This document shows, one piece after another, positions 1 through 40,644 of a stretch of 64,000 nucleotides of DNA. The notes under the pieces were generated by a model that was not told where the DNA came from, did not search any database, and was given only the letters and a program-made list of their open reading frames with translations. The stretch comes from an uncultured virus (IMG/VR IMGVR_UViG_3300020531_000001). Lineage: Duplodnaviria; Heunggongvirae; Uroviricota; Caudoviricetes. The stretch is taken from positions 1 through 64,000 of IMG/VR virus record IMGVR_UViG_3300020531_000001; one strand, 5' to 3'. Position 1 is the first letter of the stretch, and each line of letters begins with the position of its first letter. The position numbers and the translations under genes are program-made.

Positions 1-825
1 ACTGTAGGAAATGCATGTACTAGTAATACTGGATCAACTGTATATTATACAGGATCTTTCGAAATAGGAACTACATTATATACTGATGCTGATTTAACTG
101 CTGTTGTTTCTGATGGATATTATAGAAGTGGAAGTACAGTATATCTAGTATCTAGTGGAGTTATTCAATCTTCTTCAACTTGTCCAAATTCAATTTATTT
201 GTATTTCGGATCTACTGTAGGAACTTCGTGTACTAGTAATACTGGATCAACTGTATATTATACAGGATCTCTCGGAATAGGAACTGTATTATATACAGAT
301 GCTGATTTAACTAATGTTGTTTCTGATGGGTATTATAATTATTACGGAACGGTATTTCTAGTATCTAGTGGGGTTATTCAATCTTCTTCAACTTGTCCAA
401 ATTCGATTACTTTATTTTTTGGATCTACTGCACAAATTTCGTGTGTTAGTGGTACTGGTACGACTGTATATTATACAGGATCTCTCGGAATAGGAACTAT
501 ATTATATAGTGATATCGATTTAACCATAACCGTCCCCGATGGATATTATGAAAACGGAAGCACAGTATATCTAACAAACGGTGGAGTTATTCAATCTTCT
601 TCAACTTGTCCAAATTCGGATACTTTATTATATAATTTAGATAATTCTTGTTCTACTGGAACATCATCTATATTATATTATGCTGCTACTCTTGCTGTAG
701 GAACTTTTGTATATAGCAATTTTGATAGAACCATACCAGCAGCTGATGGTTATTATAGAGAAAATATAAATGTTGTTTATGTTGTTTTAAACGGAGTGAT
801 AACCAGCATTACAAAATGCAACTAT
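1..825 (+). repeat. Coding tandem repeat, 213-nt (71-aa) period, 3 good copies plus 1 degenerate
   Basis: actgtagga...tgtactagtaatactggatcaactgtatattatacaggatct recurs at 1 and 214; attcaatcttcttcaacttgtccaaattc recurs three times. Confidence 0.9.
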
Positions 826-1659
826 CAAACCAGCACAACATCCACAACACTACCACCAACGCAACGCTGCCCTGGCAGAGCTATAGTTATACAAATTTGC
901 AATAGCAATGCTGCAAAAGATGATAATTTTGATATTTATGTAAATGGATATTATCTAGGTGGGCTTGATTTAAATTCAAATGCTCAAGTGGGTTCTATAT
1001 TTATAGGATCTGATATTCCAAATTTAACAATAGTAAATCAAGATTTTGCCTGTCCATTAAACCAAATGGTAGAATATAGATTTAATGAAAATATATTAAA
1101 TCTAGGAAATAACAATAACCTGTATATGAAAAATACGCAGGTTAATTTTAATGGCAATTTTGGAACAGTACAAATTAGAGCTTATGATATTATTGGAACT
1201 CTTTTGTTAAATCCAACTGTTATAGCAGATTTAACATATAGTGGAAGCAATGGTTCTGATTTTCTTTTTGAAAATGTTGATATTTTTTGCCCCACCACAA
1301 CAACCACAACATCAGCTCCTACTACTACCACTACTAGCACCACAACACTTGCTCCTGTCACCACTACTACTACCACTACCACTTCACCACCAACCACTAC
1401 ATTACCGCCATGTCCTGTTCATACATCGCAACCCCCGCCATTTATCAATACTCCAAAAGGAATAGAATTAGAATCTATAATTTCTACAAATTCTCCCAGA
1501 AATATAACATTAGTTGAATCTTCAGATCCTTTAACTTCTGATATTATTTTAACAACTACCACAACTACTACCACAACTACCACAACCACGACTACAACTA
1601 CAATATATCCAACAACAATATTAAATTGTAACCCATATTGCAATAAATTGGGCTATTAA
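1..1659 (+). CDS. 5'-truncated repeat-rich, probably virion-surface protein with 71-aa Cys-flanked repeats and Thr/Pro mucin-like tracts
   Basis: Frame 1 is open from base 1, so the TTG at 199 is not the true start. Contains repeats TVYYTGS..IGT.LY.D.DLT....DGYY and poly-Thr tracts near the C-terminus. Confidence 0.75.
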   Translation, partial: TVGNACTSNTGSTVYYTGSFEIGTTLYTDADLTAVVSDGYYRSGSTVYLVSSGVIQSSSTCPNSIYLYFGSTVGTSCTSNTGSTVYYTGSLGIGTVLYTDADLTNVVSDGYYNYYGTVFLVSSGVIQSSSTCPNSITLFFGSTAQISCVSGTGTTVYYTGSLGIGTILYSDIDLTITVPDGYYENGSTVYLTNGGVIQSSSTCPNSDTLLYNLDNSCSTGTSSILYYAATLAVGTFVYSNFDRTIPAADGYYRENINVVYVVLNGVITSITKCNYQTSTTSTTLPPTQRCPGRAIVIQICNSNAAKDDNFDIYVNGYYLGGLDLNSNAQVGSIFIGSDIPNLTIVNQDFACPLNQMVEYRFNENILNLGNNNNLYMKNTQVNFNGNFGTVQIRAYDIIGTLLLNPTVIADLTYSGSNGSDFLFENVDIFCPTTTTTTSAPTTTTTSTTTLAPVTTTTTTTTSPPTTTLPPCPVHTSQPPPFINTPKGIELESIISTNSPRNITLVESSDPLTSDIILTTTTTTTTTTTTTTTTTIYPTTILNCNPYCNKLGY

Positions 1660-1672
1660 TAAATATGTCAAT

Positions 1673-2602
1673 ATGAGAAAATTGACCATTGGAATGGCGA
1701 CTTATGATGATTATGATGGTGTTTATTTTACAATTCAATCAATTAGAATGTATCATAAAGAAGTTTTAAATGATATTGAATTTGTAATAATCGATAATAA
1801 TCCATCTGGAAATCATGCAAAACCAATCAGAGAATTGACTGATTGGATAAAAGAACCAGTTCAATACTTTCCATTTACTAAATTTAAATCAACCACTGTA
1901 AAAAATAAAGTATTTGAAATAGCTGACACACCATATGTGATGTGTATTGATAGTCATGTATTATTAGAACCAGGAAGTTTAAAAAAATTAATAGATTTTT
2001 ATGATTCTGGTCTTGATAATGGCAATTTATTACAAGGTCCGCTTATATACGATGACTTATCAAACATCTCAACACACTTTGATTTAAAATGGAGCGGTCA
2101 CATGTGGGGTACATGGGCTACTGATGATAAAGGAAAAGACATAGATTCGCCACCATTTGAAATTCCAGCACAAGGAATGGGTTTGTTTTCATGCAGAAAA
2201 AATTCTTGGTTGGGATTTAATAAAGAATTTCGTGGATTTGGCGGAGAAGAAGGATACATTCATGAAAAATACAGAAAAAACGGTAAACAAACGTTATGTT
2301 TACCGTTTTTGAAATGGCTCCATAGATTTGGTAGACCATCAGGAGTTCCTTATGTTAATGATCTAAAAGATCGTTTTAGAAATTACATGATTGGATTTAT
2401 TGAACTTGATTTAGATACAACAGAACTTAAAAATCATTTTAGTCAAGCTTTATCTAAACAAGATATTGAAGCTATAGAGCAAGAAAGCATTCTTTTAAAT
2501 AAAGAATTGGATAAAATTATAAATCCAACCAAAACTATAAAATGCATTGATGTTTGCTGTCAAGACAAAACACCCAATTCAATTTCTGTGTTAACATCAT
2601 GA
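1673..2602 (+). CDS. GT-A fold glycosyltransferase with DxH motif (ppGalNAc-T/GT27- or GT60-like)
   Basis: GT2-like N-terminus (LTIGMATY, FVIIDN), CIDSH, GMGLFS, GFGGEE, HRF. Confidence 0.75.
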   Translation: MRKLTIGMATYDDYDGVYFTIQSIRMYHKEVLNDIEFVIIDNNPSGNHAKPIRELTDWIKEPVQYFPFTKFKSTTVKNKVFEIADTPYVMCIDSHVLLEPGSLKKLIDFYDSGLDNGNLLQGPLIYDDLSNISTHFDLKWSGHMWGTWATDDKGKDIDSPPFEIPAQGMGLFSCRKNSWLGFNKEFRGFGGEEGYIHEKYRKNGKQTLCLPFLKWLHRFGRPSGVPYVNDLKDRFRNYMIGFIELDLDTTELKNHFSQALSKQDIEAIEQESILLNKELDKIINPTKTIKCIDVCCQDKTPNSISVLTS

Positions 2603-2799
2603 AGCATTGCTGGATAGCGTTCTTCGATATAATGTTCAATAGCCACTGGTTTTAAAAAATTATCAACATCCAGCTTTAATTCTTCGGCTTTTCCTTGAAT
2701 AAACTCAAGGGCTTCGATTAAACACGCCCATCTAGCGAAAGAAACGCTGCTCATTTGTTCAACTGTACCATTTGCTCGTTCGATTATTACTTTGTTCAT
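2560..2799 (-). CDS. hypothetical protein
   Basis: 79-aa ORF with ATG start, collinear with neighbouring minus-strand genes. Confidence 0.6.
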   Translation of the reverse strand: MNKVIIERANGTVEQMSSVSFARWACLIEALEFIQGKAEELKLDVDNFLKPVAIEHYIEERYPAMLHDVNTEIELGVLS

Positions 2800-2808
2800 G
2801 CCAGAATA

Positions 2809-3285
2809 TTATTCTAGTTTTTTATTAATCAAATTTTCAAAAATTGTATTATTATCAGCTGGTTGAGCAACCAATATACTGTCATAACTTATAAAAATCT
2901 TATATTTTTCTTTACAATTTTTACATTCTGTTAAGTTTTCAGAATTTGGAAGAAGGATTCCTTGAAATAAATCACCACCACAATTACAAGGTATGTTTAC
3001 AAACTGTTCATCTAATAATCTTTCATACTCTTGAATAACTTCATCTTTTTCATTTATCAATTCTAACAATTCCTCTGAATTTACATCATTGTTGTTGGAA
3101 TTTTTGGTATTTTTAGTGAGATTTATTATAAAATGGATACCCGTTAGTAAAAAAATCAAAGAAATTAAAATAAAAAAAGAACTTTGGAATGGAATAGATA
3201 AAAAACTCAACCCATATGAAAATGCAGTTGTGAATATCAGACCAATACCAAAGACGAAAGAATGAAATTTAATATTACTTGTCAT
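2809..3285 (-). CDS. membrane protein with two N-terminal TM segments and a CxC..CxxC zinc ribbon
   Basis: Hydrophobic N-terminus, PCNCG and ECKNCK; start taken at ATG 3285. Confidence 0.6.
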   Translation of the reverse strand: MTSNIKFHSFVFGIGLIFTTAFSYGLSFLSIPFQSSFFILISLIFLLTGIHFIINLTKNTKNSNNNDVNSEELLELINEKDEVIQEYERLLDEQFVNIPCNCGGDLFQGILLPNSENLTECKNCKEKYKIFISYDSILVAQPADNNTIFENLINKKLE

Positions 3286-3637
3286 CAACATCCATTTTAC
3301 CACCTATAGTGTGCTTGTCAAGGATATTATCAACGTTTTTAAAAAGATACATCACCAATTTGTCCATATTATTTTTTAAATTAGCCAATTCTTTTTTATC
3401 CTTGATATTATTAGATTCTAACAATGGTTCTATAATTTTTGATGCTTTTATAGCATTTTCTACTATCGTTGCGAAACAAATTGGCAATTCTCTCAACTCA
3501 TAAGGTAATAAATCTGGTGATTTATGTGTTTCTTTCTCTTCTTTTTTACGTTCTTTGAAATTTCTACTATCATTAAAATCAAAATTGATATTTGCCGATA
3601 AAAAACCAGTAGCGTATGGAGAATCTTTGCTTCGCAT
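3275..3637 (-). CDS. hypothetical late protein
   Basis: ATG at 3637 lies 5 nt after a minus-strand TAAATA box. Confidence 0.6.
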   Translation of the reverse strand: MRSKDSPYATGFLSANINFDFNDSRNFKERKKEEKETHKSPDLLPYELRELPICFATIVENAIKASKIIEPLLESNNIKDKKELANLKNNMDKLVMYLFKNVDNILDKHTIGGKMDVDDK

Positions 3638-3642
3638 ATTAT

Positions 3643-3666
3643 TATTTATCAAATAAATACTAAATA
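3643..3666. promoter_or_regulatory. Back-to-back divergent T4-type late promoters (TAAATA)
   Basis: TATTTA at 3643-3648 (minus) and TAAATA at 3654-3659 and 3661-3666 (plus), each 5-6 nt from an ATG. Confidence 0.65.
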
Positions 3667-4103
3667 TGAATATGAGCAATTTATACGCTAAGAGATTCAA
3701 AATGATGTTAGAAGCTGATGAAGACATTTCATTAGAAAGAGACGCTATGGAAGCTTCATTGGATGATAATACAGACCCAGCTCAATTCGATGCTAATATT
3801 GATGATATGGTGCAAGCGCAAACTGACATAGATGATGGCATTTCAAAAAGAAATGAGCAAATAGTAACTGAATTGCAAGGTTGGATTGATAATATTGATT
3901 CATTTTTGAAAATTCTTAATAGTGGAGATGGTGCAAGTATGCAATCCAGACTTGCAAATGCTGAACCCGACACTATTTTTGATAAAATGAAGCAGTCCCA
4001 ACAAACTAAAATATCCAGAGTTGCATCAGACTTAGCTTCTCTTCATCAGGCATTCCTTGGATTTATGGCACAGACCAAAAATCCAAAATATAAATATGTT
4101 TAA
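3666..4103 (+). CDS. hypothetical acidic late protein (possible internal head protein)
   Basis: Late box upstream; N-terminus ...RFKMMLEAD. Confidence 0.65.
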   Translation: MNMSNLYAKRFKMMLEADEDISLERDAMEASLDDNTDPAQFDANIDDMVQAQTDIDDGISKRNEQIVTELQGWIDNIDSFLKILNSGDGASMQSRLANAEPDTIFDKMKQSQQTKISRVASDLASLHQAFLGFMAQTKNPKYKYV

Positions 4104-5200
4104 ATTTTATTAAACAATAATTTAAATTTTAAAATAGCCGATGGTCCACATTGGCTATTTTTTTTGATAAAGTCTATAGGAACTTGATCTATTTTCTTAT
4201 CAATACACAATTCATTGAAATCTTTAAACTGTTTATACTTCTCAGGCCAAATAAACACACATTCATCTTGTTCTAATAACACTATACTCTTTTTTCTTGC
4301 GGTTTCATCAATCCATTGATTGTCCAACACCCAAATCTTATTAAAGAACTTAAGTTCTTCCAATTGTTCCAACTGAATCGTTGTAAACTTGTGATACCCC
4401 TCGTTGATACCCGCTACAGCTACTCCATTACGCACAAAACAGGCATCCAGCGGTCCTTCGAATATAAATACATCATCTAGTGAAGGATCTACCCTTTCTA
4501 TCCCAAAAATTGATTTATCGGAGTTAATTTTTGATAAATAATTTGGTTTTTCATCCCATTTAACAAGTTTTCTGGTCTGATAATGAATAAATTTACCAGA
4601 AGTATCTAAAAATGGTATAACTAATCTATTTTTATGATTAAAATCATTTAAAGATATATAAAATGCGCCTGGTTTATTGATTGCGGTGTCTAATCTACGA
4701 GATTTTAAATAATCTAAAGCAGTTTGAACTATATTATTATCTTTATAATACTCTAATTGAATAGAATCGAATAAATTAATGCAATCATCTGGTAAAGATG
4801 GGCTTTTTTTAACTTTAACAGAGTCATTTATTGACATCACATCCAATAAATCATAAGAATCATCTGATATTTCACGACAAATTTCATCATAATTCATCCC
4901 AGAAACACGCATAATCCATTTTAAAGGATTACTACTCCATCCACAGTTATGGCAATATATTAAATTATTTTCTGGTATATAAAAACAACGTTTCTTTTTT
5001 CCAAAACTTTTACCTTCTTTGCATATTGGGCAAGAACACTGATATGTATCATTGAATCTATTATGTTTTGGATAAAATCCCAACTCAAAAAACTTAGCTA
5101 TTACATAATCAGTAGGTAATTCTTCAATTTTTTTCGTTTTCTTCGTGTTGAGCCCTCGCAATATTGCGGACAAATTTTGGGAGTCTTTCAACATACTCAA
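4100..5200 (-). CDS. gp61: DNA primase (T4 gp61-like)
   Basis: Zn finger CPIC...CHNCG, TOPRIM motifs FEGPLD and WVLDN, FKDFNE; start uncertain. Confidence 0.9.
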   Translation of the reverse strand: MSMLKDSQNLSAILRGLNTKKTKKIEELPTDYVIAKFFELGFYPKHNRFNDTYQCSCPICKEGKSFGKKKRCFYIPENNLIYCHNCGWSSNPLKWIMRVSGMNYDEICREISDDSYDLLDVMSINDSVKVKKSPSLPDDCINLFDSIQLEYYKDNNIVQTALDYLKSRRLDTAINKPGAFYISLNDFNHKNRLVIPFLDTSGKFIHYQTRKLVKWDEKPNYLSKINSDKSIFGIERVDPSLDDVFIFEGPLDACFVRNGVAVAGINEGYHKFTTIQLEQLEELKFFNKIWVLDNQWIDETARKKSIVLLEQDECVFIWPEKYKQFKDFNELCIDKKIDQVPIDFIKKNSQCGPSAILKFKLLFNKI

Positions 5201-18530: not shown

Positions 18531-19733
18531 TCAATTGAACTTCAGTATGTATTTTCTAGATGATGAACCGTATGGAGTGTCTAGAGCTTCCATGAAAGCT
18601 CCTATATTTTCTGGTCTTTCTAAAAATCTCGCTTCTCCAATTTTACGAAGTTCTGGGATTAATTGATAATATCTAGCTCTATTTTTCCAATTCAATAATT
18701 CTTCTACTTTGTTTTCTAAATCTTCTCCTGTTTTAAATTTTAAAACATTCAGCGCATTTTCATATGTTGTCATATCTTGAACTAGACATGGGATTCCCAA
18801 ACATGCAGCTTCAATGTATTTGATATCAGATTTACTTCTATTAAATGAATTATCTTGCAAGGGAGCTAAAAACAATTGAGCATTTAAACTATCTAAAAAG
18901 TTAGGGTATTCAATTAATGTCTTCCAAGGATGAAATTCAATTTTTCTATTTTCAACTAAATGTCTAATGGGAGGAGGTACAGCTCCGATAAAAACAAATT
19001 GATATTTATCAACATTTTTAGAAATAAATTCTATAACATGAGTAAAATCATCTTGTTGTTTTGTCTTATTTCCAACATCAAAATGTGCTCCAGATCCTGA
19101 ATATACAATGCGAGGTTTCTTTTTATTTTTATCAAAATTATCAATGATTTTACGATAATTGAACTGATGACCGATCCACCAATATGGAGGGAAATTAGGT
19201 ATTACCGAAATTTCTTCTTTACCAGTTCTTAATTTATATAAATCTCTCATGTGTTTACATGTAACTGTAACCTCATCAGACATATTAATCATATCAATGC
19301 AGTTTTGGCGAATTTCATCATTATCAAACGCTGGCTTATAGATATTATAATCTGGAATGTCTTCTCTGAATACGACATCATCAACTTCATATATAATTTT
19401 AAATCCAAGTTCTGGTTGTATACTTTTCAAAAACTCAAAAAACATTTTCTGTTCTTTACTTGCTTGTCTTTGAAGCTTAATAGTTTTTATATCTCTGTAC
19501 CATTCTTTATCAAAAATCATTTTAGTAAGAGATGCTGAATCTCCCATGTTGGACATATTGATATGAAGTTCTGGCCAACCTATTCTCCACTGACCACACC
19601 CCTGACGATCTGCCATGAAATTTAAATATCTAGCTGGTCCATTTGGAACACTATTGATTTCTGGTGCTTTGGAAATTACACTATTTGAAAATGGTGATGT
19701 TGGAAACGGAGATGGAAATGGATTGGAAAACAT
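18531..19733 (-). CDS. GT-B fold glycosyltransferase
   Basis: GCGQWRI..P, YEVDD, APLQDNSFNRSKSDIKYIEA. Confidence 0.8.
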   Translation of the reverse strand: MFSNPFPSPFPTSPFSNSVISKAPEINSVPNGPARYLNFMADRQGCGQWRIGWPELHINMSNMGDSASLTKMIFDKEWYRDIKTIKLQRQASKEQKMFFEFLKSIQPELGFKIIYEVDDVVFREDIPDYNIYKPAFDNDEIRQNCIDMINMSDEVTVTCKHMRDLYKLRTGKEEISVIPNFPPYWWIGHQFNYRKIIDNFDKNKKKPRIVYSGSGAHFDVGNKTKQQDDFTHVIEFISKNVDKYQFVFIGAVPPPIRHLVENRKIEFHPWKTLIEYPNFLDSLNAQLFLAPLQDNSFNRSKSDIKYIEAACLGIPCLVQDMTTYENALNVLKFKTGEDLENKVEELLNWKNRARYYQLIPELRKIGEARFLERPENIGAFMEALDTPYGSSSRKYILKFN

Positions 19734-25380: not shown

Positions 25381-25812
25381 ATGTCAGAATGGATAAATTT
25401 ACCTGAAAATAAAAATAGTTTTCATGGATTTGTTTATATTATTAATAATAATCATCCAGATTCTAAAAAAAAGTATTATATTGGATGTAAAAAAATATTA
25501 AAAAGAATAAAAAGAAAACCATTAAAAGGTAAAAAGAGAAATAGAATAGACTATGTTGATAATAATGTAGATTCTTATTGGGGAAGTTCAGAAGAATTGA
25601 AAAAAGATATAGAAATATATGGTTTGGAATATTTTGAAAGAAAAATTCTACACATGTGTGAAAATCAATGGGAAATGAAGTTTTTAGAAATGTACGAACA
25701 GATGAAATATAATGTTCTATTTGACAAAAGCTCATACAATGGCATAATAAATGTTAGAATTAACAGCGTTCCTAAATCTTTAGAGGAGAAATATAAAAAT
25801 TTTAAATTTTAA
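25381..25812 (+). CDS. small GIY-YIG family nuclease
   Basis: GFVYII...YYIGCK, YWGSS, YNG. Confidence 0.75.
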   Translation: MSEWINLPENKNSFHGFVYIINNNHPDSKKKYYIGCKKILKRIKRKPLKGKKRNRIDYVDNNVDSYWGSSEELKKDIEIYGLEYFERKILHMCENQWEMKFLEMYEQMKYNVLFDKSSYNGIINVRINSVPKSLEEKYKNFKF

Positions 25813-29654: not shown

Positions 29655-30389
29655 ATGAGAATAGCAATAAGCGGTGCTTCAAATTCTGGCAAATCAACAT
29701 TAATAAATTCATTTCTTCGAAGATGGCCAATGTATTCAACTCCGATGAAATCTTACAGAGATATTCTAAAAGAACATAATTTAGAGCATTCGACTAAAAC
29801 AAATGAAGAGACTCAATTATTAATATTAGATTCTATGATGAAAGTCCAAGAAGGATTTAAATCTACAGATAATATAATTTTCGATAGATGCACGTGGGAT
29901 AATCTAGCATATACATTAGTTGCTAATTCTTATGAACAAGTTTCCGATGAAGTCACAGCAGCTTCTATTTCTTTTGTAAAAGAAAGCATGAAAGATATAG
30001 ATATCATATTTTGGTTAGAATATGATTCAGATATTAAAGTTTTAGATAATGGCACAAGAGATACTAATACTGATTATATCAAAGAAGTTGATGGTGTTTT
30101 TAAACAATTATATGAACATTATTCTAATGATTTAGAAACTGATATTTTCTATCCAAAAGAAGATTGCCCAGCTATTATTCCAGTAGAAGGAAAAACCGTC
30201 GATGATAGAATTTTTTATATTTCTCAATTTATTGATGATACAGGTAGATTAATCGAGCCTGATAGTTCTTTGTTTAGTGAAGAAAATCTTCAAATATTAG
30301 AACAAATGCTTACTGATCAAACTAAAGCAAAAAATGATGATGCTGAAGTTATAAATTTAATGAAAGAAATTAGCAAATTTAAAAAATAA
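29655..30389 (+). CDS. P-loop nucleotide kinase-like protein (dNMP kinase/AAA_28 type)
   Basis: MRIAISGASNSGKST, IFDRCTWD. Confidence 0.75.
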   Translation: MRIAISGASNSGKSTLINSFLRRWPMYSTPMKSYRDILKEHNLEHSTKTNEETQLLILDSMMKVQEGFKSTDNIIFDRCTWDNLAYTLVANSYEQVSDEVTAASISFVKESMKDIDIIFWLEYDSDIKVLDNGTRDTNTDYIKEVDGVFKQLYEHYSNDLETDIFYPKEDCPAIIPVEGKTVDDRIFYISQFIDDTGRLIEPDSSLFSEENLQILEQMLTDQTKAKNDDAEVINLMKEISKFKK

Positions 30390-31210
30390 TGTTAAATGAT
30401 AAGAAAATAGGGGTTGGTATTATCACTTACAATAGAATTGACAACCTTAGAAAATTACTTGATTCATTAAATCAATGCGAATCAATTATTGATGAATTGA
30501 TAGTTGTAAATGATGGAGAATCTATTAATGATTTTTCAAAATTTCAATTTCCTATTCTAAATAGCAACTGGGTTAATAACCCGCAAAATCTTGGGGTGGG
30601 TAAGTCTAAAAATATAGCTCTTAAACATTTACATGAATCTGGATGCGATCATCTATTTTTAATAGAGGATGATATTTTTATTAAAAATAAAAATGTATTT
30701 GAAAGATATATAGAATCATCCAAGATATCAGGAATACAGCATTTTATGTATTCTCAACACGGCGTTATGAACAAATCATGGCATAGTGGAAATGCAAATC
30801 CTATAATGATAATTGATTATGGAACTTTGAAAATTCCATTATATCCAGCAGCCGTTGGTGCGTTTTCTTATTTTTCCAAACTTTGTATAGAAAAAGCAGG
30901 ATATTTTGATGAAAGATATTATAATGCATGTGAACATGTAGATCATACATATGAAATTATTAAAAAAGGCATGCATCCTCCATTTTGGTATAATGCGGAT
31001 ATTGAAAATTCTTGGGAATATCTAGAAGACGAAGCTTGGAGTATGGAACAATCTACAATTTCATCTAAGCCTAATTTAAATCAAATCGTCTCTAAATCTG
31101 ATGAAATTTTCTTTTTGAAGCATGGAACTGTGCCAACAGCTGTTCCTTTTTCTAGAGAAGAAGAAGTAATACAATCTATTAAAAAAATTAAAAAAGAATA
31201 TGGACAATAA
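30389..31210 (+). CDS. GT2 glycosyltransferase
   Basis: GIITYNR, VVNDG, NLGVG, LIEDD, GYFDE, EHVD. Confidence 0.85.
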   Translation: MLNDKKIGVGIITYNRIDNLRKLLDSLNQCESIIDELIVVNDGESINDFSKFQFPILNSNWVNNPQNLGVGKSKNIALKHLHESGCDHLFLIEDDIFIKNKNVFERYIESSKISGIQHFMYSQHGVMNKSWHSGNANPIMIIDYGTLKIPLYPAAVGAFSYFSKLCIEKAGYFDERYYNACEHVDHTYEIIKKGMHPPFWYNADIENSWEYLEDEAWSMEQSTISSKPNLNQIVSKSDEIFFLKHGTVPTAVPFSREEEVIQSIKKIKKEYGQ

Positions 31211-31763
31211 TATTTGGGAAATAGCTAAAAATAAATATAAAATTCAACAAATCCAAGAGGAATGGTTTTGGTTGATTGACACTGCAATTGTAACACCATA
31301 CAAAGATAAGAAAATCAACATTTTTGAAATCGGTTGTTATGATGGAGGATCGACTTATTATTTGAGTAATTTTGCAAAAAATATGATAACTGTGGATAAT
31401 AATAATCCATGCCGTTTCGATCCTTCAAGTATCCCAGCGAGTGAAAGTTATCAATATTTTGGTGGTGACAGTCACGATCCAAATATAATAAAAAATGTAA
31501 GTAAATTTGATTGGGATTTTGTTTTTATTGATGGCGATCATTCATACGAAGGAGTCAAAGCTGACTTTTATAATGTTTTACCGTACCTTAAAAAAGGAAC
31601 GCCTGTCGCATTTCACGACATTGCCATTTCACATTTTCATCATACACATGGATGCTATGTCGGTGAGTTTTGGAGAGATTTGAAAAATGAATACAAAGCA
31701 ACTAAATTTGAAGAATACCAAACTGATAAAGAATGGGCTGGAATAGGTCTACTTTTCGTATGA
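31200..31763 (+). CDS. class I SAM-dependent methyltransferase (Methyltransf_24-like)
   Basis: FEIGCYDGGST, FIDGDHSYEGV, FHD. Confidence 0.85.
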   Translation: MDNNIWEIAKNKYKIQQIQEEWFWLIDTAIVTPYKDKKINIFEIGCYDGGSTYYLSNFAKNMITVDNNNPCRFDPSSIPASESYQYFGGDSHDPNIIKNVSKFDWDFVFIDGDHSYEGVKADFYNVLPYLKKGTPVAFHDIAISHFHHTHGCYVGEFWRDLKNEYKATKFEEYQTDKEWAGIGLLFV

Positions 31764-31780
31764 AAAGACTAAATATATGA

Positions 31781-32536
31781 ATGGGACAAGGAAGATACTC
31801 AAAATATCCAAACAAGGCGGGGATTTATAAATTCAAATGCATTATCAACGATAAGATTTACATAGGAAAATCTATAAACATTAGGGATAGGATAAACAGT
31901 CATAGATATACACTATCAGAAACAAATAAAAGAAAAAAAGGATATTTTGAAAGTGCTATCAAAAAATATGGATGGGATTCTTTTGAATTTGAAATATTAG
32001 AGATTGTGGAGGATTTTGATAAACATAAAGATAACGATGATCTCTTAAAGAGAGAAGCATATTACATAAAGTTATTTGATTCTACTGATCCAAATAAAGG
32101 GTATAATTTATGTAAGTATTCAAGTGATAGAACTGGGGTTCCGTGTTCGGAAGAATCTAAAGAAAAATTAAGACAGGCTAATTTGGGAAAGAAACACTCA
32201 GAAGAAACCAAACTTAAAATGAAAGAAAGCTCTGCTAAATTAACTAAAGATAAACAAAAAAGACAATCTGGTAGACCTCTTCCAGAGGAAACCAAAAGAA
32301 AATTATCTAAAATTAATAAAGGAAAGACACCATCTAAAAATACTATAGATGCTATTAAAAATAGAGTTCGTAAAAGGTATAAAGTCCAAACTCCCAGCGG
32401 TGATTGTGTTGAAATTGTTAATATGGCTAAGTTTTGCAGAGATGAAAAATTAGGAAGGGATAGTATGGATAGGTTAGTTAGAGGGATTATAACTAACTAT
32501 ATGGGGTGGACATTTATAGAAGCTGTGATAATATAG
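31781..32536 (+). mobile_element. free-standing GIY-YIG homing endonuclease with NUMOD3 repeats
   Basis: GIYKF...IYIGKS, R...H, REAYYI, GYN, HSEETKLKM repeats; own TAAATA box. Confidence 0.88.
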
Positions 32537-32672
32537 GAATTATTAAAGATCCGATGTCAGAAAAACATAAAGAAAAAATTAAACAGTTAAATTTAAGAAA
32601 ACCTAAATCTAGAAAAATTAAAAATGTAAAAATGTAGAAATATTAGCAAATGAATAATATAAAAAATAAAGT

Positions 32673-33416
32673 ATGGACTTAACATTAATAACTTGCAATT
32701 ATAATACGCCGATACAGATAGTAAGACTGTTGCAAAGCGTAAAAGAAACATCGTCACAGTTACCGAAGGTTATTGTGATGAATACATCAACAACCCAAGA
32801 TTCTGATAAAATTTTATCAGATAATGATATACCTTATTATAATTTTAGAGGAGGATCGCATGGTGAATCTGTTAATTTAGCCTTTAAAAAAGTAAAAACT
32901 AAATATGTTCTATTGGTGGATTCTGATGTAATATTTTTAAAAGATTTTCTCCCAGCTTTTGAAAAATTCAAATCTTCAAATTTAACTCTTATGGGTAAAG
33001 TTGTCGGCAATGTCGCTGGTAAAAATCTGTATGAAAGAGTGGAACCTTGGTATTGTTTCATGAATTATGAAATTTTGAAAAATAAAAAAATTGAGTTTTT
33101 CGATAGAGAAAGAGTTAAGAAAAGCAAAGAGGACAATATAAAAGTATATGATATAGGTTCTACAATGTTTGAAGATGTTGAAAAATCTAATCTACTGATT
33201 GGAGATGTAGATTTAGAAAACAAATATTTTAAACATTACGGAGGAATGTCATGGCATTGTCAAAAATATAATTCTTCAGAAGATGATACTGATATTGATT
33301 TTGGTGGAACTCATCCACATGAAATTCTTTGGAATATTGGTCAACAAAGAAAAAATCAATACGATATCGAAACAGAATACTTAAAAGATATAGATATTAA
33401 ATCTTGTTTTAAATGA
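32673..33416 (+). CDS. GT2-like glycosyltransferase
   Basis: LITCNYN, HGE, LLVDSD. Confidence 0.75.
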   Translation: MDLTLITCNYNTPIQIVRLLQSVKETSSQLPKVIVMNTSTTQDSDKILSDNDIPYYNFRGGSHGESVNLAFKKVKTKYVLLVDSDVIFLKDFLPAFEKFKSSNLTLMGKVVGNVAGKNLYERVEPWYCFMNYEILKNKKIEFFDRERVKKSKEDNIKVYDIGSTMFEDVEKSNLLIGDVDLENKYFKHYGGMSWHCQKYNSSEDDTDIDFGGTHPHEILWNIGQQRKNQYDIETEYLKDIDIKSCFK

Positions 33417-34165
33417 ATAAATGTTTTGTAAAAGTTGGAGGTGGGTTAGGAAATCAATTGTTTCAAATAGCCGCCGCTTATTCTTATTGTAAGAAATATA
33501 ATAAAAAATTATATATAGATATATCAGATTGGAGCGCATCTCAAGGAGTTAATCCAATAAAATATAAAGATTCAATATTTAAAAATTTTGAATACCATTT
33601 ATATTCTACTCCAGAAACTACAAAAATTGAAGAAGAAAGTTTAATTTATAAAGAACTTCCATATCATGATGGGGATGTATCGTTTCATGGCTATTTTCAA
33701 TCTGATAAATATTTTATAGAACATAAGGATGAATTTGTAAATTGTTTAAGTTTGCCAAATCTTGATAGTTCCTTTATGCAAGAAAAAAATGTTGCATTTC
33801 ATATAAGAAGAGGAGATTATATTAGTTATTCTCATATATATAATGTGTGTAATACTGATTATTTTAATAAACAATTTGAAGCATTTAAAGATTATCAAAT
33901 AAATGTTTTTACTGATTCTCCCGACTTTATATGTAATGAATTTAAAAATCAAAAATTCAATTTAATAATATCACATTCGGAATTAGAAGACTTGACTTTA
34001 ATGAGTTTGCATACAAATATAGTATGCAGTAATTCATCATTTTCTTGGTGGGCATCTTTGCTAGGCAAAGAAAAAGATAACATAATTGTTCCAAATAGAT
34101 GGTTCAATAATTCAGAAAATCATTATGACATATACAGATCAGACTTTACAAAAATCGAAGTATAA
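33413..34165 (+). CDS. GT11 (alpha-1,2-fucosyltransferase family) glycosyltransferase
   Basis: GGLGNQLFQ, GYFQS, HIRRGDY, FTD, NSSFSWW. Confidence 0.9.
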   Translation: MNKCFVKVGGGLGNQLFQIAAAYSYCKKYNKKLYIDISDWSASQGVNPIKYKDSIFKNFEYHLYSTPETTKIEEESLIYKELPYHDGDVSFHGYFQSDKYFIEHKDEFVNCLSLPNLDSSFMQEKNVAFHIRRGDYISYSHIYNVCNTDYFNKQFEAFKDYQINVFTDSPDFICNEFKNQKFNLIISHSELEDLTLMSLHTNIVCSNSSFSWWASLLGKEKDNIIVPNRWFNNSENHYDIYRSDFTKIEV

Positions 34166-34910
34166 TTTAACTGAAACATCATTCATAATACATTTTAGAA
34201 GAGATTCCGATGATAGAATTTTCAATCTTAAATGTATTTTAAATTATTTTGATACTTATATTGATTATAAAGAATTATTCATAATTAATGATGATTCTGA
34301 ACTTGATAATGAATTAAAAAATCTTAAAGAAAAATATCCAAAAATATCTATAGGTTTTTTTAAAAATGATGATGTTTATCAAAGAACTTTATGTTTCAAT
34401 AAAATTGCAAAAATAGCAAACGGTAAAGTGTTGTGTTTTTATGATACTGATGTTTTGGTAAAGCCAGAATGTTTACAACATGCTCAAAAATTAATTATAA
34501 CTGGAGAGTTGGATCATGTTTATCCATACAACGGATTATTTGTAGGTGTTAAAAAACCACATAGAGATTTATTAGTAAATTTTGAATTTAATAAATTAGA
34601 ATCATTATTATTAGAACGTCATATAGGTTATGACAATGAATATATGGCAGTTGGACACGATCACTCCGTTGGAGGGATGCACATGATGTCTAAAGAAGCA
34701 TTTAATAAAATTGAAGGATACAACGTTAATTTTATCGGTTGGGGATGTGAAGATGTTGATATTTATACTAGATCAGGCCAGAAAAATAAAGTAGCTGGTA
34801 TCAGTTCCCCTGATGCGATATGTTGGCATATTGATCATGATAATACTATAAGAACTGAGAATAAATACTATCAAAATAATTTAAATTTATTATACAGAAA
34901 TAATAAATGA
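34125..34910 (+). CDS. GT2/GT7-like glycosyltransferase
   Basis: FYDTD, VGG, GYN..FIGWGCED, WHIDH; likely start ATG 34125. Confidence 0.8.
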   Translation: MTYTDQTLQKSKYNLTETSFIIHFRRDSDDRIFNLKCILNYFDTYIDYKELFIINDDSELDNELKNLKEKYPKISIGFFKNDDVYQRTLCFNKIAKIANGKVLCFYDTDVLVKPECLQHAQKLIITGELDHVYPYNGLFVGVKKPHRDLLVNFEFNKLESLLLERHIGYDNEYMAVGHDHSVGGMHMMSKEAFNKIEGYNVNFIGWGCEDVDIYTRSGQKNKVAGISSPDAICWHIDHDNTIRTENKYYQNNLNLLYRNNK

Positions 34911-35623
34911 ATTTAAAAAAACGACCCAAATTATCAGTTGCCATTCCATGTTATGAAATGAGTGGTAAGGGTGTTGAATTTTTAGAAAAATCTTTAAACA
35001 TTATTAAAAATCAAAATGTAGATTTTTCTGAAATTGAAATTGTAATATCTGATCATTCTATAAATGATGATATAAAAAAATGCTGCGATAAGTATAACAA
35101 TATAAATTTAAAATATTATAAAAATGAAGAATGCAGAGGTTCAATGTCTGGAAATATTAATAGTTGTATTAGACAGAGTTCTGGGGAATATATAAAACCA
35201 TTATTTCAAGATGATTTTTTAAATTCTTCAAATTCTCTAAAAGCTATTTTGGATAATTTGAATTCCCCATGGATAGCTCATGAATATACTCATTTAGATC
35301 TTTCGACAGATTCATTTTATAATCAAAGAACTCCTTTCTATAATGATAGAATTTTAGAAGGAATTAACACAATTGGACCTCCAACAGTGACAGCTTTTTT
35401 GAATGATAATAATTATTTCGATGAAAATTTATTATGGTTTATGGATATAGAATTTTATCACAGAATGATGATAAAATATGGTCATCCTACAATTTTAAAA
35501 TGTAATGACCCTATAGCTACAGTTACAACATGGAGTGGACAAACTACAGAAACATCAATCAATCAAGTTTTAATTGACAAAGAAACCAATTATATTAAAT
35601 TAAAATATAATGAAAATATCTGA
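34907..35623 (+). CDS. GT2 glycosyltransferase
   Basis: SVAIPCY, VISDHS, LFQDD, FDE.L.WFMD. Confidence 0.85.
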   Translation: MNLKKRPKLSVAIPCYEMSGKGVEFLEKSLNIIKNQNVDFSEIEIVISDHSINDDIKKCCDKYNNINLKYYKNEECRGSMSGNINSCIRQSSGEYIKPLFQDDFLNSSNSLKAILDNLNSPWIAHEYTHLDLSTDSFYNQRTPFYNDRILEGINTIGPPTVTAFLNDNNYFDENLLWFMDIEFYHRMMIKYGHPTILKCNDPIATVTTWSGQTTETSINQVLIDKETNYIKLKYNENI

Positions 35624-36185
35624 GTTATTTTTAAAATATCAAAGTGATAAAAATGAAGGATCTTTATATCCTTCAGATCATCTTAGGGGTCACACATATG
35701 GAAAATCATATGATAAAATATTTGAAAAATTTGATAGAAAATCAAATTTCAATATATTAGAAATTGGAATTCAAAAGGGTGGTAGTATGCTGGCATGGAA
35801 AGATTACTTTGAAAATTCTAACATTTATGGTGTAGATATAGTAGATTGTATTTTACCAGAATATAGACGAGAGGATTTTAATTATATATTTGATGATATT
35901 AAATCTGATAATGTTACAAAAATTTTAAGTAATTTAACTTTTGATATTATTATAGATGATGGAAGTCATTTTTTGAGTGATGTTCTATTTACAGTTTCCA
36001 ATTATCTATCAAAACTTAACGATGGCGGTGTTTTAATTATAGAAGATTGTCAGCACCCAGAGGGATGGATAGAAGAAATAGGAAAGTTGGTTGATGATAA
36101 TTATAGAATAATTACAGCTGATTTGAGATATGATAGAGGTCAACCTCAATACGATAATTTTCTAATTATTATAGAAAAACAATAA
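35610..36185 (+). CDS. class I SAM-dependent (sugar O-)methyltransferase
   Basis: LEIGIQKGGS, GVDI, DIIIDDGSH, GGVLIIED. Confidence 0.85.
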   Translation: MKISELFLKYQSDKNEGSLYPSDHLRGHTYGKSYDKIFEKFDRKSNFNILEIGIQKGGSMLAWKDYFENSNIYGVDIVDCILPEYRREDFNYIFDDIKSDNVTKILSNLTFDIIIDDGSHFLSDVLFTVSNYLSKLNDGGVLIIEDCQHPEGWIEEIGKLVDDNYRIITADLRYDRGQPQYDNFLIIIEKQ

Positions 36186-36205
36186 AATTTATAATTTTAA
36201 TTTAA

Positions 36206-37117
36206 ATGATAACAACCAATTTAACTGGTAATTTAGGAAATCACATGTGGCAATACGCTGTATGTAGAATGATAGCCGAACATAAAGGTTATGATTGGGG
36301 TATAAATTCAACACCAAGCCATGATTATTTTAATGGTAAAAGCCAAATGGAATTCATGGAGATTGATTATGGAAAACCTGTTGATGGTATAATTAATTCA
36401 TTTCATGAAAGATGGATTCATATACAACATGTGGATATAGTTAACATCGCGATGTTGGACAAAAGAATCTATGATATTGAAGATAACACGGTACTATTAG
36501 GAGAAAATGGTGCATATGGTGGATTGTTTCAATGTGAAGATTATCTAATAGATAGAAAGTCTGATGTTGAAAAATGGTTTTCTATAAAACCAGAATATAA
36601 AAATCAATACGATAATAAATTAAAAGAATTAGGTATTGAATTGGATGAAAATTTATGCGTTATTAATTTCAGAGGGGGGGAATATAGAGGAATTTCCACG
36701 TGCTTGTTGAGAAAAGAATATTGGAAAGATGCTACCAATCATATGTTAGCAATCAATCCATTTATGGTTTTTTTAGCAATAACTGATGATCCTGAGCTGT
36801 GTAAAGAATATATGCCGTTTGATATTCAAACGTTGCATATTGATGCAGGTTTTGATTTTTATGTAGTTAATCAAGCTCATTGGTTGATAATTTCAAATTC
36901 ATCATTTGGATGGTGGGCTGCTTGGTTAAACAAAAAATCCAAAAAAACTATAGCTCCTAAATATTGGGCTAGACATAATGTCAGCAATGGGTATTGGGCT
37001 CTTGGTAATTCGTATACAAGAGGATTTACTTTTATGGATAGAGAAGGTAAATTATTCAATTATGATGATTGTTTAATTGAAGCAACTGAATTTTATAAAA
37101 ACCATAATATCATATAA
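36206..37117 (+). CDS. GT11-family glycosyltransferase (second copy)
   Basis: GNLGNHMWQ, NFRGGEY, ITDD, NSSFGWWAAWL. Confidence 0.85.
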   Translation: MITTNLTGNLGNHMWQYAVCRMIAEHKGYDWGINSTPSHDYFNGKSQMEFMEIDYGKPVDGIINSFHERWIHIQHVDIVNIAMLDKRIYDIEDNTVLLGENGAYGGLFQCEDYLIDRKSDVEKWFSIKPEYKNQYDNKLKELGIELDENLCVINFRGGEYRGISTCLLRKEYWKDATNHMLAINPFMVFLAITDDPELCKEYMPFDIQTLHIDAGFDFYVVNQAHWLIISNSSFGWWAAWLNKKSKKTIAPKYWARHNVSNGYWALGNSYTRGFTFMDREGKLFNYDDCLIEATEFYKNHNII

Positions 37118-37119
37118 AT

Positions 37120-37983
37120 ATGAGAAAAATTTACGACTGTTTTATTTTTTTTAATGAATTGGATTTACTTGAATTAAGATTAAATGTTTTAGATTCTTAT
37201 GTTGATTATTTTGTTATTTGTGAAGCTTCCGTAACACACAGCGGAATTAATAAAGAATATATTTTTGAAAATAATAAACATAGATTTTCAAAATTCTTAC
37301 ATAAGATTATTCATTTGAAAATTGATGATATTCCTACAAATTTTTCCAATCTTCCAATTTCATCAAACGTAAATACATTCGATGAGGAATGCGTTAATGA
37401 TATTCATTCATTTATAAATGAAACAACTCTGTTTAATAAAATAACAGAAAGTCATTTTGGTAGAGATTTTTTTCAAAAAGAATCTCTCAGAAGAGGTTTA
37501 GAGAATTGTGAAGATGATGATATTGTAATATTATCTGATTGTGATGAAATTCCAAATCCTAAAGTTTTAGAAAAAGTCGATAAGTTTATCAAAGATTATG
37601 AATTTTTTACATTTAATCAAAAGACTTATTATTATTATATAAATCTATTGAAAGAAACTTCATGGAAAGGTTCTAGAATGGGGTTATATAAAAACTTAAA
37701 AAAATATTCATTCAATAAATTAAGAGCGCAACAAAATTGCGAAATTTCTGAAGGTGGGTGGCATTTTAGTTTCATGGGAGGTTCTGAACAAGTTAAATTG
37801 AAAATTAAATCGTATTCACATCAAGAATTGAATACTTCAGAATATATAAATAATGTTGATAAAAACATAGAAAATAATATAGATCCATTTTTTAGAGGAT
37901 CTTTGACGAAAGTTGATATTGATTCATCTTATCCAGAATATATTTTAAATAATTTGCAAAAATATCAACACATGATAAAATAA
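37120..37983 (+). CDS. GT17-family (MGAT3-like GlcNAc transferase) glycosyltransferase
   Basis: YDCFIFFNELDLLELR, SDCDEIP, GGWHFSF, KIKSYSHQE. Confidence 0.85.
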   Translation: MRKIYDCFIFFNELDLLELRLNVLDSYVDYFVICEASVTHSGINKEYIFENNKHRFSKFLHKIIHLKIDDIPTNFSNLPISSNVNTFDEECVNDIHSFINETTLFNKITESHFGRDFFQKESLRRGLENCEDDDIVILSDCDEIPNPKVLEKVDKFIKDYEFFTFNQKTYYYYINLLKETSWKGSRMGLYKNLKKYSFNKLRAQQNCEISEGGWHFSFMGGSEQVKLKIKSYSHQELNTSEYINNVDKNIENNIDPFFRGSLTKVDIDSSYPEYILNNLQKYQHMIK

Positions 37984-37987
37984 ATTT

Positions 37988-38632
37988 ATGTTAGATTTAT
38001 CAAATGTAACGCTTATAGCGATGACATCTGTGAAAATACCTCAAACTATAAAAGCATTGCAATATAGTTCTAGAGATATAAAATTTGGAGCTATAAAAAT
38101 TATTTCAGATATTAAACCAGATGATCTTCCTAGTGATATTATCCATGAATATACTGAGAAAATGTCTAATATAGATGATTGGAATTATTCAATTATCTAT
38201 AAACTTGGGAAGCATATAGATACCGAATTTGCTATACTTATTCATGATGATGGTTTTATTATAAATCCTAAATCTTGGAGACCAGAGTTTTTTGAATATG
38301 ATTATATTGGAGCGCCTTGGCCGTTGCCGATGGATGATTTTTCTTATAGAGATATAAATGGTGAAATTATAAGAGTTGGTAATAGTGTATCATTACGAAG
38401 TAAAAAATTAATAGATTTACCTGTAAAATTAAATTTAGAATGGAAACCATTTCATGGCTATTATAATGAAGACGGTTTTATTTGTGTAAATTATAGACAT
38501 ATATATAAAGAACACGGTATTAAATTTGCAGATATAGATGTTGCTAAATATTTTTCACACGAAACCCAATTACCAGAAACTTTTGGAATCGAACCATTCG
38601 CCTTTCATGGAAAGAAAGGATTATTTGATTAA
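37988..38632 (+). CDS. glycosyltransferase-like protein (DUF5672 type)
   Basis: IHDDGF, YDYIGAPW, VGN.SLRSKKL, NEDGF, FAFHG. Confidence 0.7.
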   Translation: MLDLSNVTLIAMTSVKIPQTIKALQYSSRDIKFGAIKIISDIKPDDLPSDIIHEYTEKMSNIDDWNYSIIYKLGKHIDTEFAILIHDDGFIINPKSWRPEFFEYDYIGAPWPLPMDDFSYRDINGEIIRVGNSVSLRSKKLIDLPVKLNLEWKPFHGYYNEDGFICVNYRHIYKEHGIKFADIDVAKYFSHETQLPETFGIEPFAFHGKKGLFD

Positions 38633-38633
38633 T

Positions 38634-39311
38634 ATGAAAAAGGAAATAGTGATAGCCGCATATGATAAAGATTTACATTGGTTAAGTAGATTAAATTCCG
38701 ATGTGAAGAAAACTATATATCGAAAAGGAAACAGAAGTGAGGATATAAATGAAATTTATATAGAGAATAATAAAGGAAGATGTGTGCATACATTCTTTAA
38801 TCATATTTTTGAAAATTATAATAATCTTTCTGATGTAACATATTTTGCACAAGATTATCCTTTCGATCACTGGGAAAATATAATAGAAATTATAAATGAT
38901 ATTCCAACTATACAAAAAGAACAATTAAAAATAGGAGGTTATTGCGGATATCATTGGAATAGTATACAGACACCATCATCAAGTGGTGGTATTATGTGGG
39001 AATTATATCCATCCATTCATCATGGAAATGGTAATATACTTTCATGTGATAGCAAAGGACATCCTCATGCATCTGCTGATTTTCATATTGATGCTGATAA
39101 ATATTGGAATTTATTTTTTAATAACAAACCTCCTAACTTTTATGAATTCATTCCTGGGGGTCACTTTTCAATAACAAAAGAACACGCTCATTTAAGAACT
39201 AGAGATTTTTATAAAAAAGTTGTAGATTTTTTAATAGATTATGAATTTGCACCCTGGATTGTTGAAAGATTAGAGTGTTATATTTTCAATCCAAAATATT
39301 CAACTATTTAA
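38634..39311 (+). CDS. glycosyltransferase-like protein (DUF3431 type)
   Basis: VIAAY..D..W, NKGR..HTF..HI..NY, FAQDYPFDH, ERL; likely start ATG 38634. Confidence 0.65.
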   Translation: MKKEIVIAAYDKDLHWLSRLNSDVKKTIYRKGNRSEDINEIYIENNKGRCVHTFFNHIFENYNNLSDVTYFAQDYPFDHWENIIEIINDIPTIQKEQLKIGGYCGYHWNSIQTPSSSGGIMWELYPSIHHGNGNILSCDSKGHPHASADFHIDADKYWNLFFNNKPPNFYEFIPGGHFSITKEHAHLRTRDFYKKVVDFLIDYEFAPWIVERLECYIFNPKYSTI

Positions 39312-39316
39312 ATGAT

Positions 39317-39344
39317 TTGACATTTCAAAAAAATTTGGTAGATT
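39317..39344 (+). promoter_or_regulatory. sigma70-type promoter TTGACA-N16-TAGATT
   Basis: 7 nt before ATG 39352. Confidence 0.6.
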
Positions 39345-39351
39345 TTAGAAT

Positions 39352-40641: not shown

Positions 40642-40644
40642 TTT

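Follow-up and report, generated by a model that had tools for sequence, protein, structure and literature searches.

The DNA analyzed here is a stretch of 64,000 nucleotides (hereafter the window) from an uncultured virus of the Caudoviricetes (IMG/VR IMGVR_UViG_3300020531_000001) and covers the opening 64 kb of a viral contig that measures 138,718 bp and has an estimated completeness of 66%. The contig is that of a T4-like phage, with PHROG matches to DNA polymerase, UvsX, SbcCD, primase, helicases, portal, sheath stabiliser, and major head protein, the last of which is 34% identical to its nearest cultured relatives (cyanomyophages). The window opens with two plus-strand genes, an open reading frame (ORF1) encoding a Thr-rich protein that ends in a poly-Thr/Cys module, and directly behind it a gene for a soluble glycosyltransferase (GT) with a GT-A fold (Table 1). 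A reading made earlier from the letters alone (the sequence-only reading) had described these genes as a substrate-enzyme pair that builds a mucin-like glycosylated stalk on the virion. On the evidence of fold, invariant residues, and gene linkage presented below, we consider it fairly probable that the GT serves as a dedicated polypeptide O-glycosyltransferase whose substrate is the mucin-like protein encoded next to it.

Thr accounts for 103 of the 552 residues of ORF1 in the window, and for 38% within the last 130 aa. The Thr/Pro tracts and the poly-Thr run that had been reported in this ORF are present at aa 431-467 and 518-534, and ORF1 alone, among 159 nonoverlapping ORFs of ≥100 aa on the whole 138.7-kb contig, contains a Thr/Ser/Pro run of eight residues or more. 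The mixed codons of the Thr run suggest selection on the amino acid and not slippage of a simple DNA repeat. ORF1 matches no Pfam family above threshold and no PHROG family, and an Atlas search with its middle region gave no usable match. The 71-aa (213-nt) tandem repeats at its N-terminal end (2.9 copies with 81% matches) are probably the reason why the contig, and hence ORF1, ends at base 1; contigs from four lake runs are identical to the window from position 589 onward, with no differences over 589-2700, and are broken up inside 1-610. The stretch was found again in 20 lake or freshwater metagenome runs dating from 2016 to 2024 (among the matches listed, each from a separate study and with ≥83% of the sampled words). 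Full-length relatives of ORF1 measure 706 aa from the first ATG (locus L004) and 816 aa from stop to stop (L003).

Table 1. Features at the start of the window and in its glycan island (single positions are those given for each gene of the island).
Feature	Position in window	Strand	Basis or remark
ORF1, candidate acceptor protein	1..1659	+	5′ end open at contig start; 552 aa in window; C-terminal poly-Thr/Cys module
N-terminal repeat domain of ORF1 (71-aa tandem repeats)	1..617	+	repeat detection; site of assembly breaks
Middle globular region of ORF1, aa 288-431, CPGRAIV...DIFCP	862..1293	+	similar stretches in L054, L050
Thr/Pro/Ser mucin-like tract PTTTTTTSAPTTTTTSTTTLAPVTTTTTTTTSPPTTT, aa 431-467	1291..1401	+	sequence composition
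Conserved segment before poly-Thr, LPPCPVH..QPPP..STNSPRNITLVESSDPLTSDIIL	1402..1551	+	alignment A3
Run of 17 Thr, aa 518-534, mixed ACA/ACT/ACC/ACG codons	1552..1602	+	codon reading
C-terminal module end IYPTTILNCNPYCNKLGY	1603..1656	+	alignment A3: C86, C90, L93 invariant in 35/35, last residue aromatic
Spacer between ORF1 and GT gene, 13 nt	1660..1672	+	no exact late-promoter octamer, no terminator-like site
Soluble GT-A glycosyltransferase, 309 aa, Pfam GT2, fold closest to ppGalNAc-T	1673..2602	+	Pfam, AlphaFold models, fold searches
D93-S94-H95 (DxH)	1949..1957	+	D93, H95 invariant in 75/75 phage and bacterial homologues
F189-G-G-E192-E193	2237..2251	+	F189, G190, E192, E193 invariant
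H217-R218-F219	2321..2329	+	invariant; H217 candidate C-terminal metal-binding His, role suggested by the available text of PMC7185993
GT2-type genes	30389, 32673, 34086 (also Glyco_transf_7C), 34907	+	glycan island
GT11 fucosyltransferase-like genes	33413, 36206	+	glycan island
GT17-like gene	37120	+	glycan island
DegT aminotransferase; epimerase/dehydratase	39352; 40645	+	glycan island

The sole Pfam match of the GT is to PF00535 (Glycos_transf_2) over aa 6-135 (40.2 bits versus a cut-off of 23.3, E = 4.5e-10), and all 75 phage and bacterial homologues match the same family. The four motifs on which the likeness to polypeptide N-acetylgalactosaminyltransferases (ppGalNAc-Ts, family GT27) had first been proposed are found in the order given, CIDSH at aa 91-95, PAQGMGLFS at 165-173, GFGGEE at 188-193, and HRF at 217-219, and residues D93, H95, E192, E193, H197, K199, H217, R218, and F219 are invariant across the 75 homologues. 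The protein has no predicted membrane helix (highest 19-residue hydropathy 1.06) and, at 309 aa with PF00535 only and a modelled tail consisting of a helix followed by disorder, no ricin-type lectin domain. It matches no PHROG family; a single-sequence phmmer search of PDB sequences returned no match, and thus no GT27 chain, and tblastn against 50,697 phage records gave nothing at E 1e-5. In metagenomes the family numbers 3060 proteins at E ≤ 1e-3 (the best 120 of which are all ≥66% identical), with 1768 cluster representatives at the 50% identity level, and its Atlas matches are to GT2-type clusters only, some with Glyco_transf_7C, which we take as a lead only.

Two AlphaFold models of the GT were obtained. 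The first used 36 close homologues and reached a predicted local distance difference test (pLDDT) score of 80.1; its four sibling models were poor, and a second model was therefore built from 75 phage and bacterial sequences, with a pLDDT of 92.9, a predicted template modelling (pTM) score of 0.87, and all five models at ≥90.6. Both were compared with 48,161 representative chains in a fold search independent of Foldseek, with margins stated in Z units. Both models rank two ppGalNAc-T representatives first, namely mouse GalNAc-T1 (8v9q; scores of 19.5 and 22.9 for the first and second models, the latter over 265 aligned residues with a root mean square deviation (rmsd) of 3.2) and Toxoplasma GalNAc-T3 (8uhv; 19.2 and 21.9, the latter over 260 aligned residues with an rmsd of 3.2). 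The corresponding scores are 16.6 and 18.8 for the chondroitin polymerase K4CP, 16.0 and 17.9 for RmlT, 15.9 and 17.6 for AvpGT, 14.3 and 17.1 for TarS (5tze), 14.8 and 15.9 for SpsA, and 11.3 and 11.9 for SunS, so that GT27 leads all polymer-acting enzymes by 3-4 Z units. In a Foldseek search of the whole PDB, every match listed above TarP is a ppGalNAc-T, and TarP itself appears at rank 41 with one model and at rank 48 with the other. The best structural matches are thus ppGalNAc-Ts, as the sequence-only reading had supposed, and not non-peptide GT2 enzymes.

The DxH motif points the same way. According to the available text of Taujale et al. (2020, PMC7185993), DxH takes the place of DxD only in GT27 and GT60, both polypeptide Ser/Thr O-glycosyltransferases; a C-terminal His binds the metal in GT27; and GT27, GT60, GT7, and the GT2 domain of chondroitin polymerase form one clade. 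The top three structural matches (GalNAc-T1, GalNAc-T3, and K4CP) fit this clade, and H217 of the phage enzyme lies within the range aligned to GT27 structures. In the GT27 motif, the glutamate of GGE is followed by Asn; the phage and bacterial enzymes have an invariant Glu (E193) at this position, so that an inverting mechanism is possible as well as a retaining one. The likeness to ppGalNAc-Ts therefore holds for fold and DxH and stops short of GT27 membership, because the sequence searches do not connect the enzyme to GT27 and both the lectin domain and the membrane anchor are missing. CAZy draws its families by sequence, and this enzyme is most aptly placed in a new DxH GT-A family that has a GT27-like fold and poly-Thr proteins as partners. 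To judge from the models and the motif, its mode of action is probably that of a GT27/GT60-type polypeptide O-glycosyltransferase.

The two genes are separated by the 13-nt gap previously described; the "late box" said to lie in it does not hold up, as the spacer contains no exact TATAAATA, the nearest sequence being AATAAATA. The window shows no excess of the late octamer (13 occurrences versus 17.6 expected), and promoter-like matches near the junction do not exceed the shuffled expectation (35 found versus 27.4 expected). A box 4 nt before the ATG would be unable to act as the promoter of the GT gene, which makes it more likely that ORF1 and the GT gene are co-transcribed. On the minus strand, a 79-aa ORF (2560-2799) runs toward the GT gene and shares 43 nt with its 3′ end; in L080 and L081, both of which are without the Thr-rich module, an 85-aa ORF that is similar by eye immediately precedes the GT in the same orientation.

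To place the pair in a wider context, viral contigs were scanned for relatives of the GT. The scan matched 330 stretches, 318 of them encoding relatives, and the best 80 loci were examined, 79 of which could be assessed. In 65 of these 79, the gene that ends 12-17 nt before the GT start carries the same C-terminal module with its Cys motifs, and 63 of the 65 are Thr-rich; after dereplication at 90% GT identity, the module is found upstream of the GT in 33 of 43 clusters. As a background, Thr-rich ORFs make up 20 of the 1040 other ORFs in the phage loci, and 19 of them are likewise located upstream on the same strand. Alignment A3, with 35 sequences, gives the order of the module as a CC/CxxC-Pro motif, a Pro-rich stretch, (N/S/D)-P-(L/F)-x-x-I, poly-Thr, and a terminal C-x3-5-C-N/K-x-L-x-F/Y. 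The part N-terminal to the module varies widely, from almost nothing (a 177-aa protein in the complete genome G002) up to 1374 aa (L077). Two or three tandem paralogues carrying the module occur in L004, L007, L019, L034, L036, L054, and L061; in L004, a 99%-identical relative, three of them are interleaved with a PPC-domain protein and two unnamed Cys-rich proteins. The Cys-rich paralogues of L004 (positions 3-656 and 2190-3293 of that locus) both end in ...CKxCGCGSNKLAVLNP..., the second of them has no Pfam, NCBIfam, or PHROG match, and the PPC-domain protein follows at 3340-3870.

Two further surveys approached the linkage from other directions. A primase-anchored survey with a strict filter (43 loci with ≥4.5 kb beyond the primase) found GT and module together in 11 loci, the GT alone in five, neither in 27, and the module alone in none, where a gene missing within 7 kb may still lie elsewhere in the genome; by eye, a module is present in at least two of the five loci with the GT alone. 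A reciprocal scan with back-translated CNKLGF-stop, a weak test, returned 24 stretches, of which 13 were chance matches, nine were true modules, and two were module-like without a nearby GT. The GT follows all nine true modules, and at least eight lie on contigs already in the list of loci.

Homologues with ~50% identity to the GT are encoded by bacteria of many phyla, often as one domain of long proteins. Fifteen such long homologues were scanned and were found to include GT25 (seven proteins), methyltransferase (five), PqqD (three), sulfotransferase (two), and HPr-kinase (one) domains. In 23 of 79 bacterial loci (among L083-L154, e.g., L085, L092, L109, and L127 of the culturable Oricola indica), one to four small genes for poly-Thr precursors lie beside the GT homologue. 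These precursors are built from a twin-arginine-like leader, consisting of RRxxLK, a hydrophobic stretch, and a W-x-K/R-P-V-V...PAHA segment, and from a nearly pure poly-Thr tail. Thr-rich ORFs around the bacterial GT are found upstream on the same strand (14) and on the opposite strand (none), and downstream on the same (two) and opposite (four) strands. A quick tree, whose midpoint root serves display only, places the phage enzymes in a single group (Shimodaira-Hasegawa-like approximate likelihood ratio test support, 95), and its precursor-linked loci are scattered on the bacterial side across at least six phyla. In L085, the gene order is precursor (4535-4906), an HprK-related-kinase-A::GT fusion, nucleotidyltransferase, and PqqD; this precursor, the one scanned, has no NCBIfam match. 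L125 (4383-6849; a Prosthecobacter metagenome-assembled genome) encodes a 355-aa poly-Thr/Pro protein, a GT29 enzyme (sialyltransferase family, E = 8e-15), and the GT, preceded by an IPT/TIG-repeat protein; its GT is sister to all phage GTs in the quick tree, and the locus may be phage derived. The linkage of GT homologues to Thr-rich genes that had been put forward as a check on the pair is therefore found in phages and, independently, in bacteria. The bacterial partners have the poly-Thr tail and no Cys module, so that the poly-Thr tract is the only feature common to phage and bacterial partners, and this is the strongest argument for Thr as the acceptor.

These loci also bear on what else the enzyme might modify. 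An ordinary GT2-type transferase could have a nonprotein substrate, for instance a glycan, a lipid-linked sugar, a teichoic acid-like host polymer, or modified DNA, and lie next to ORF1 simply as another late gene at the end of an operon. We consider this rather improbable: it leaves unexplained why the same enzyme family occurs beside unrelated poly-Thr genes in several bacterial phyla, why it is fused to the peptide-binding domain PqqD, and why a constant C-terminal module persists behind N-terminal parts of nearly zero to more than 1000 aa, and it sits poorly with the 3-4 Z units by which GT27 exceeds all polymer-acting enzymes and with a DxH motif reported, in the available text of PMC7185993, only for the polypeptide-acting GT27 and GT60. 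Glycosylation of DNA was considered as a function in its own right and was rejected, as it accounts for neither the poly-Thr linkage nor the PqqD fusions. In another arrangement, the upstream protein would be modified at a conserved part other than Thr, by S-glycosylation of an invariant Cys as in glycocins or at Ser or Asn in NPL/STNSP, the Thr runs being flexible spacers. This we regard as very improbable, given that the bacterial partners keep the poly-Thr tail but not the Cys module and that SunS scores far below GT27 (11.9 versus 22.9).

Our preferred reading, O-glycosylation of Thr in the neighboring protein, can be fitted to the genomic position of the pair in two complete relatives, G001 and G002 (198 and 202 kb, with terminal repeats). 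There the pair closes a plus-strand baseplate/tail-fibre block, whose genes encode, among others, wedge proteins like gp25 and gp6 and a tail-fibre protein; G001 is collinear with G002, and the minus-strand genes that follow the pair in both match positions 2809-5200 of the window. ORF1 and the GT would accordingly be made together late in infection, as the last two genes of a baseplate/tail-fibre operon. The soluble, cytoplasmic enzyme would bind a nucleotide sugar via a metal coordinated by D93, by H95, and probably also by H217 and transfer the sugar to the hydroxyls of the Thr tracts in the C-terminal module of ORF1; paralogues with the same module would be glycosylated alike, and each would thereby acquire a stretch with mucin-like glycosylation. 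A recognition or attachment element is probably formed by the Cys/Pro motif, the (N/S/D)-P-(L/F)-x-x-I segment before the poly-Thr, and the terminal C-x3-5-C-N/K-x-L-x-F/Y, and the variable N-terminal domains would be displayed on the particle. PqqD (PF05402) is absent from all three phage genomes searched, two of them complete, and the lack of a PqqD-type partner in these phages suggests that recognition lies in the enzyme together with the conserved non-Thr parts of the module.

The pair could also be real and yet have a product that stays out of the virion; once glycosylated, the Thr-rich protein would be freed at lysis or act in or on the host as an adhesive, a protective layer, or a decoy. 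None of eight module proteins matches a PHROG structural family, some of the proteins barely exceed the module (177 aa in G002), and the bacterial counterparts resemble secreted peptides. The pair nevertheless comes directly after baseplate/tail-fibre genes on the same strand in both complete relatives, the full-length acceptors of L004 and L161 begin, by eye, without a hydrophobic stretch resembling a signal peptide, and the long, variable N-terminal domains look to us like display domains. We give such a nonvirion product a small but real chance. Of the substrate-enzyme pair on the virion that the sequence-only reading had proposed, the pair is supported by fold and linkage, and its place on the virion is suggested only by its operon-end position in the relatives; the stalk form is a guess.

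Several findings weigh against a polypeptide O-glycosyltransferase whose product is carried on the particle. In nine of the 43 dereplicated phage clusters, the position directly before the GT holds neither the module nor a Thr-rich gene; the phage loci share relatedness, so that their counts are not independent events, and the primase-anchored pattern might stem from a single gain or a few. The 506-aa module-like proteins of L167 and L184 have no GT within 1.5 kb or elsewhere in their partial contigs, and 56 of the 79 bacterial loci show no poly-Thr precursor within 6 kb. At the level of sequence, profiles A1, A2, and A4 of the GT retrieve no GT27 chain from PDB sequences at E values up to 10; the profile reaches only the N-terminal, nucleotide-binding half of polymer-acting bacterial GT2 enzymes (TarP at 1e-5, K4CP, and TarS); and PF02709 (Glyco_transf_7C) is matched weakly by 12 of the 75 members, with a best E value of 0.047, below the cut-off. 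Likeness of fold alone is no proof of function. Finally, it is gene order only that suggests incorporation into the virion, and none of the eight module proteins scanned matches a PHROG family; nor do four proteins encoded beside them in the related loci.

Among known systems, the ppGalNAc-Ts of GT27 (8v9q and 8uhv) are closest in fold and have DxH in common with the phage enzyme; they differ in possessing a lectin domain and a membrane anchor and in working in the secretory pathway, whereas the phage and bacterial enzyme is cytoplasmic, is without these, and has no sequence-level match to them. GT60 enzymes, like the GT described here, are without a lectin domain, and their acceptors are Thr-rich and mucin-like. 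GT60, the UDP-GlcNAc (uridine diphosphate N-acetylglucosamine):polypeptide α-GlcNAc-transferases of Dictyostelium and trypanosomes, shares DxH with the phage enzyme, as far as PMC7185993 tells; these are eukaryotic Golgi enzymes, however, and no GT60 chain appears in the fold-search lists. In the mycobacteriophages Che8, Corndog, and Myrna, phage-encoded glycosyltransferases modify the phage's own structural proteins (Freeman et al. 2023, as described in the available part of PMC12363180 and cited in PMC12582341), and experimental evidence of phage virion glycosylation is limited to mycobacteriophages, as far as PMC12363180 tells. The acceptors in that case belong to the capsid and the tail tube of siphoviruses that infect Actinobacteria, with no poly-Thr module mentioned in the same available text, and the tblastn search of the 50,697 phage records with this GT gave no match at E 1e-5. 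The serine-rich repeat (SRR) adhesins with GtfA/GtfB and the S/O-glycosyltransferases of glycocins (SunS) likewise have a dedicated cytoplasmic GT encoded beside a Ser/Thr-rich or peptide substrate. A further comparison is offered by bacterial cassettes of HprK-related kinase, PqqD, and nucleotidyltransferase (the context of NCBIfam TIGR04352), which are fused to or lie beside the bacterial GT homologues, next to leader-bearing poly-Thr precursors; in contrast, the phages are without PqqD (none of three genomes) and the kinase domain, and their C-terminal Cys module takes the place of the N-terminal leader.

To our knowledge, the enzymes that start mucin-type O-glycosylation (GT27 and GT60) are regarded as eukaryotic, and a literature search that left supplements and subscription journals outside its scope found no paper on the enzyme-module pair or on such a poly-Thr glycosyltransferase in phages or bacteria. 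The enzyme described here occurs alongside poly-Thr proteins in T4-like phages that are abundant in fresh and marine waters, and also in bacteria from several phyla. It is a tentative proposal, possible though doubtful in our view, that these enzymes make up a widespread prokaryotic family of GT27/GT60-like poly-Thr O-glycosyltransferases, perhaps related to the mucin-type starters, and that in this phage the enzyme begins glycans on a modular protein associated with the tail, which other glycosyltransferases of the phage extend to yield a virus-encoded particle mucin. Should the pairing of enzyme and acceptor be confirmed, it would offer a simple, expressible model for polypeptide O-glycosylation, would suggest a role for the many "lipopolysaccharide-like" glycosyltransferases of aquatic phages, and would hint that sugar coats on phage appendages affect adsorption, stability, or resistance to grazing in lakes and oceans. 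The C-terminal module could double as a portable glycosylation tag.

The window contains, on its plus strand, a glycan island (30389-41460) with at least seven further glycosyltransferases, which also holds DUF5672, DUF3431, and two methyltransferases; no flippase or polymerase was found among the ORFs of the island that were scanned. G001 and G002 likewise have clusters of GT2 genes. That this island extends glycans on the Thr-rich protein is speculation, although it could do so. Another glycosyltransferase gene (18531-19733, minus strand; phrog_7162, E = 8e-24, no Pfam match) is found between the DNA polymerase and an SbcC-like gene. Finally, three plus-strand genes in the window resemble homing endonucleases: a SegE-type GIY-YIG gene at 25381-25812, a GIY-YIG gene with NUMOD3 inserted in the glycan island at 31781-32536, and a phrog_3339/HNH-type gene at 62200-63750, directly after the major head gene.

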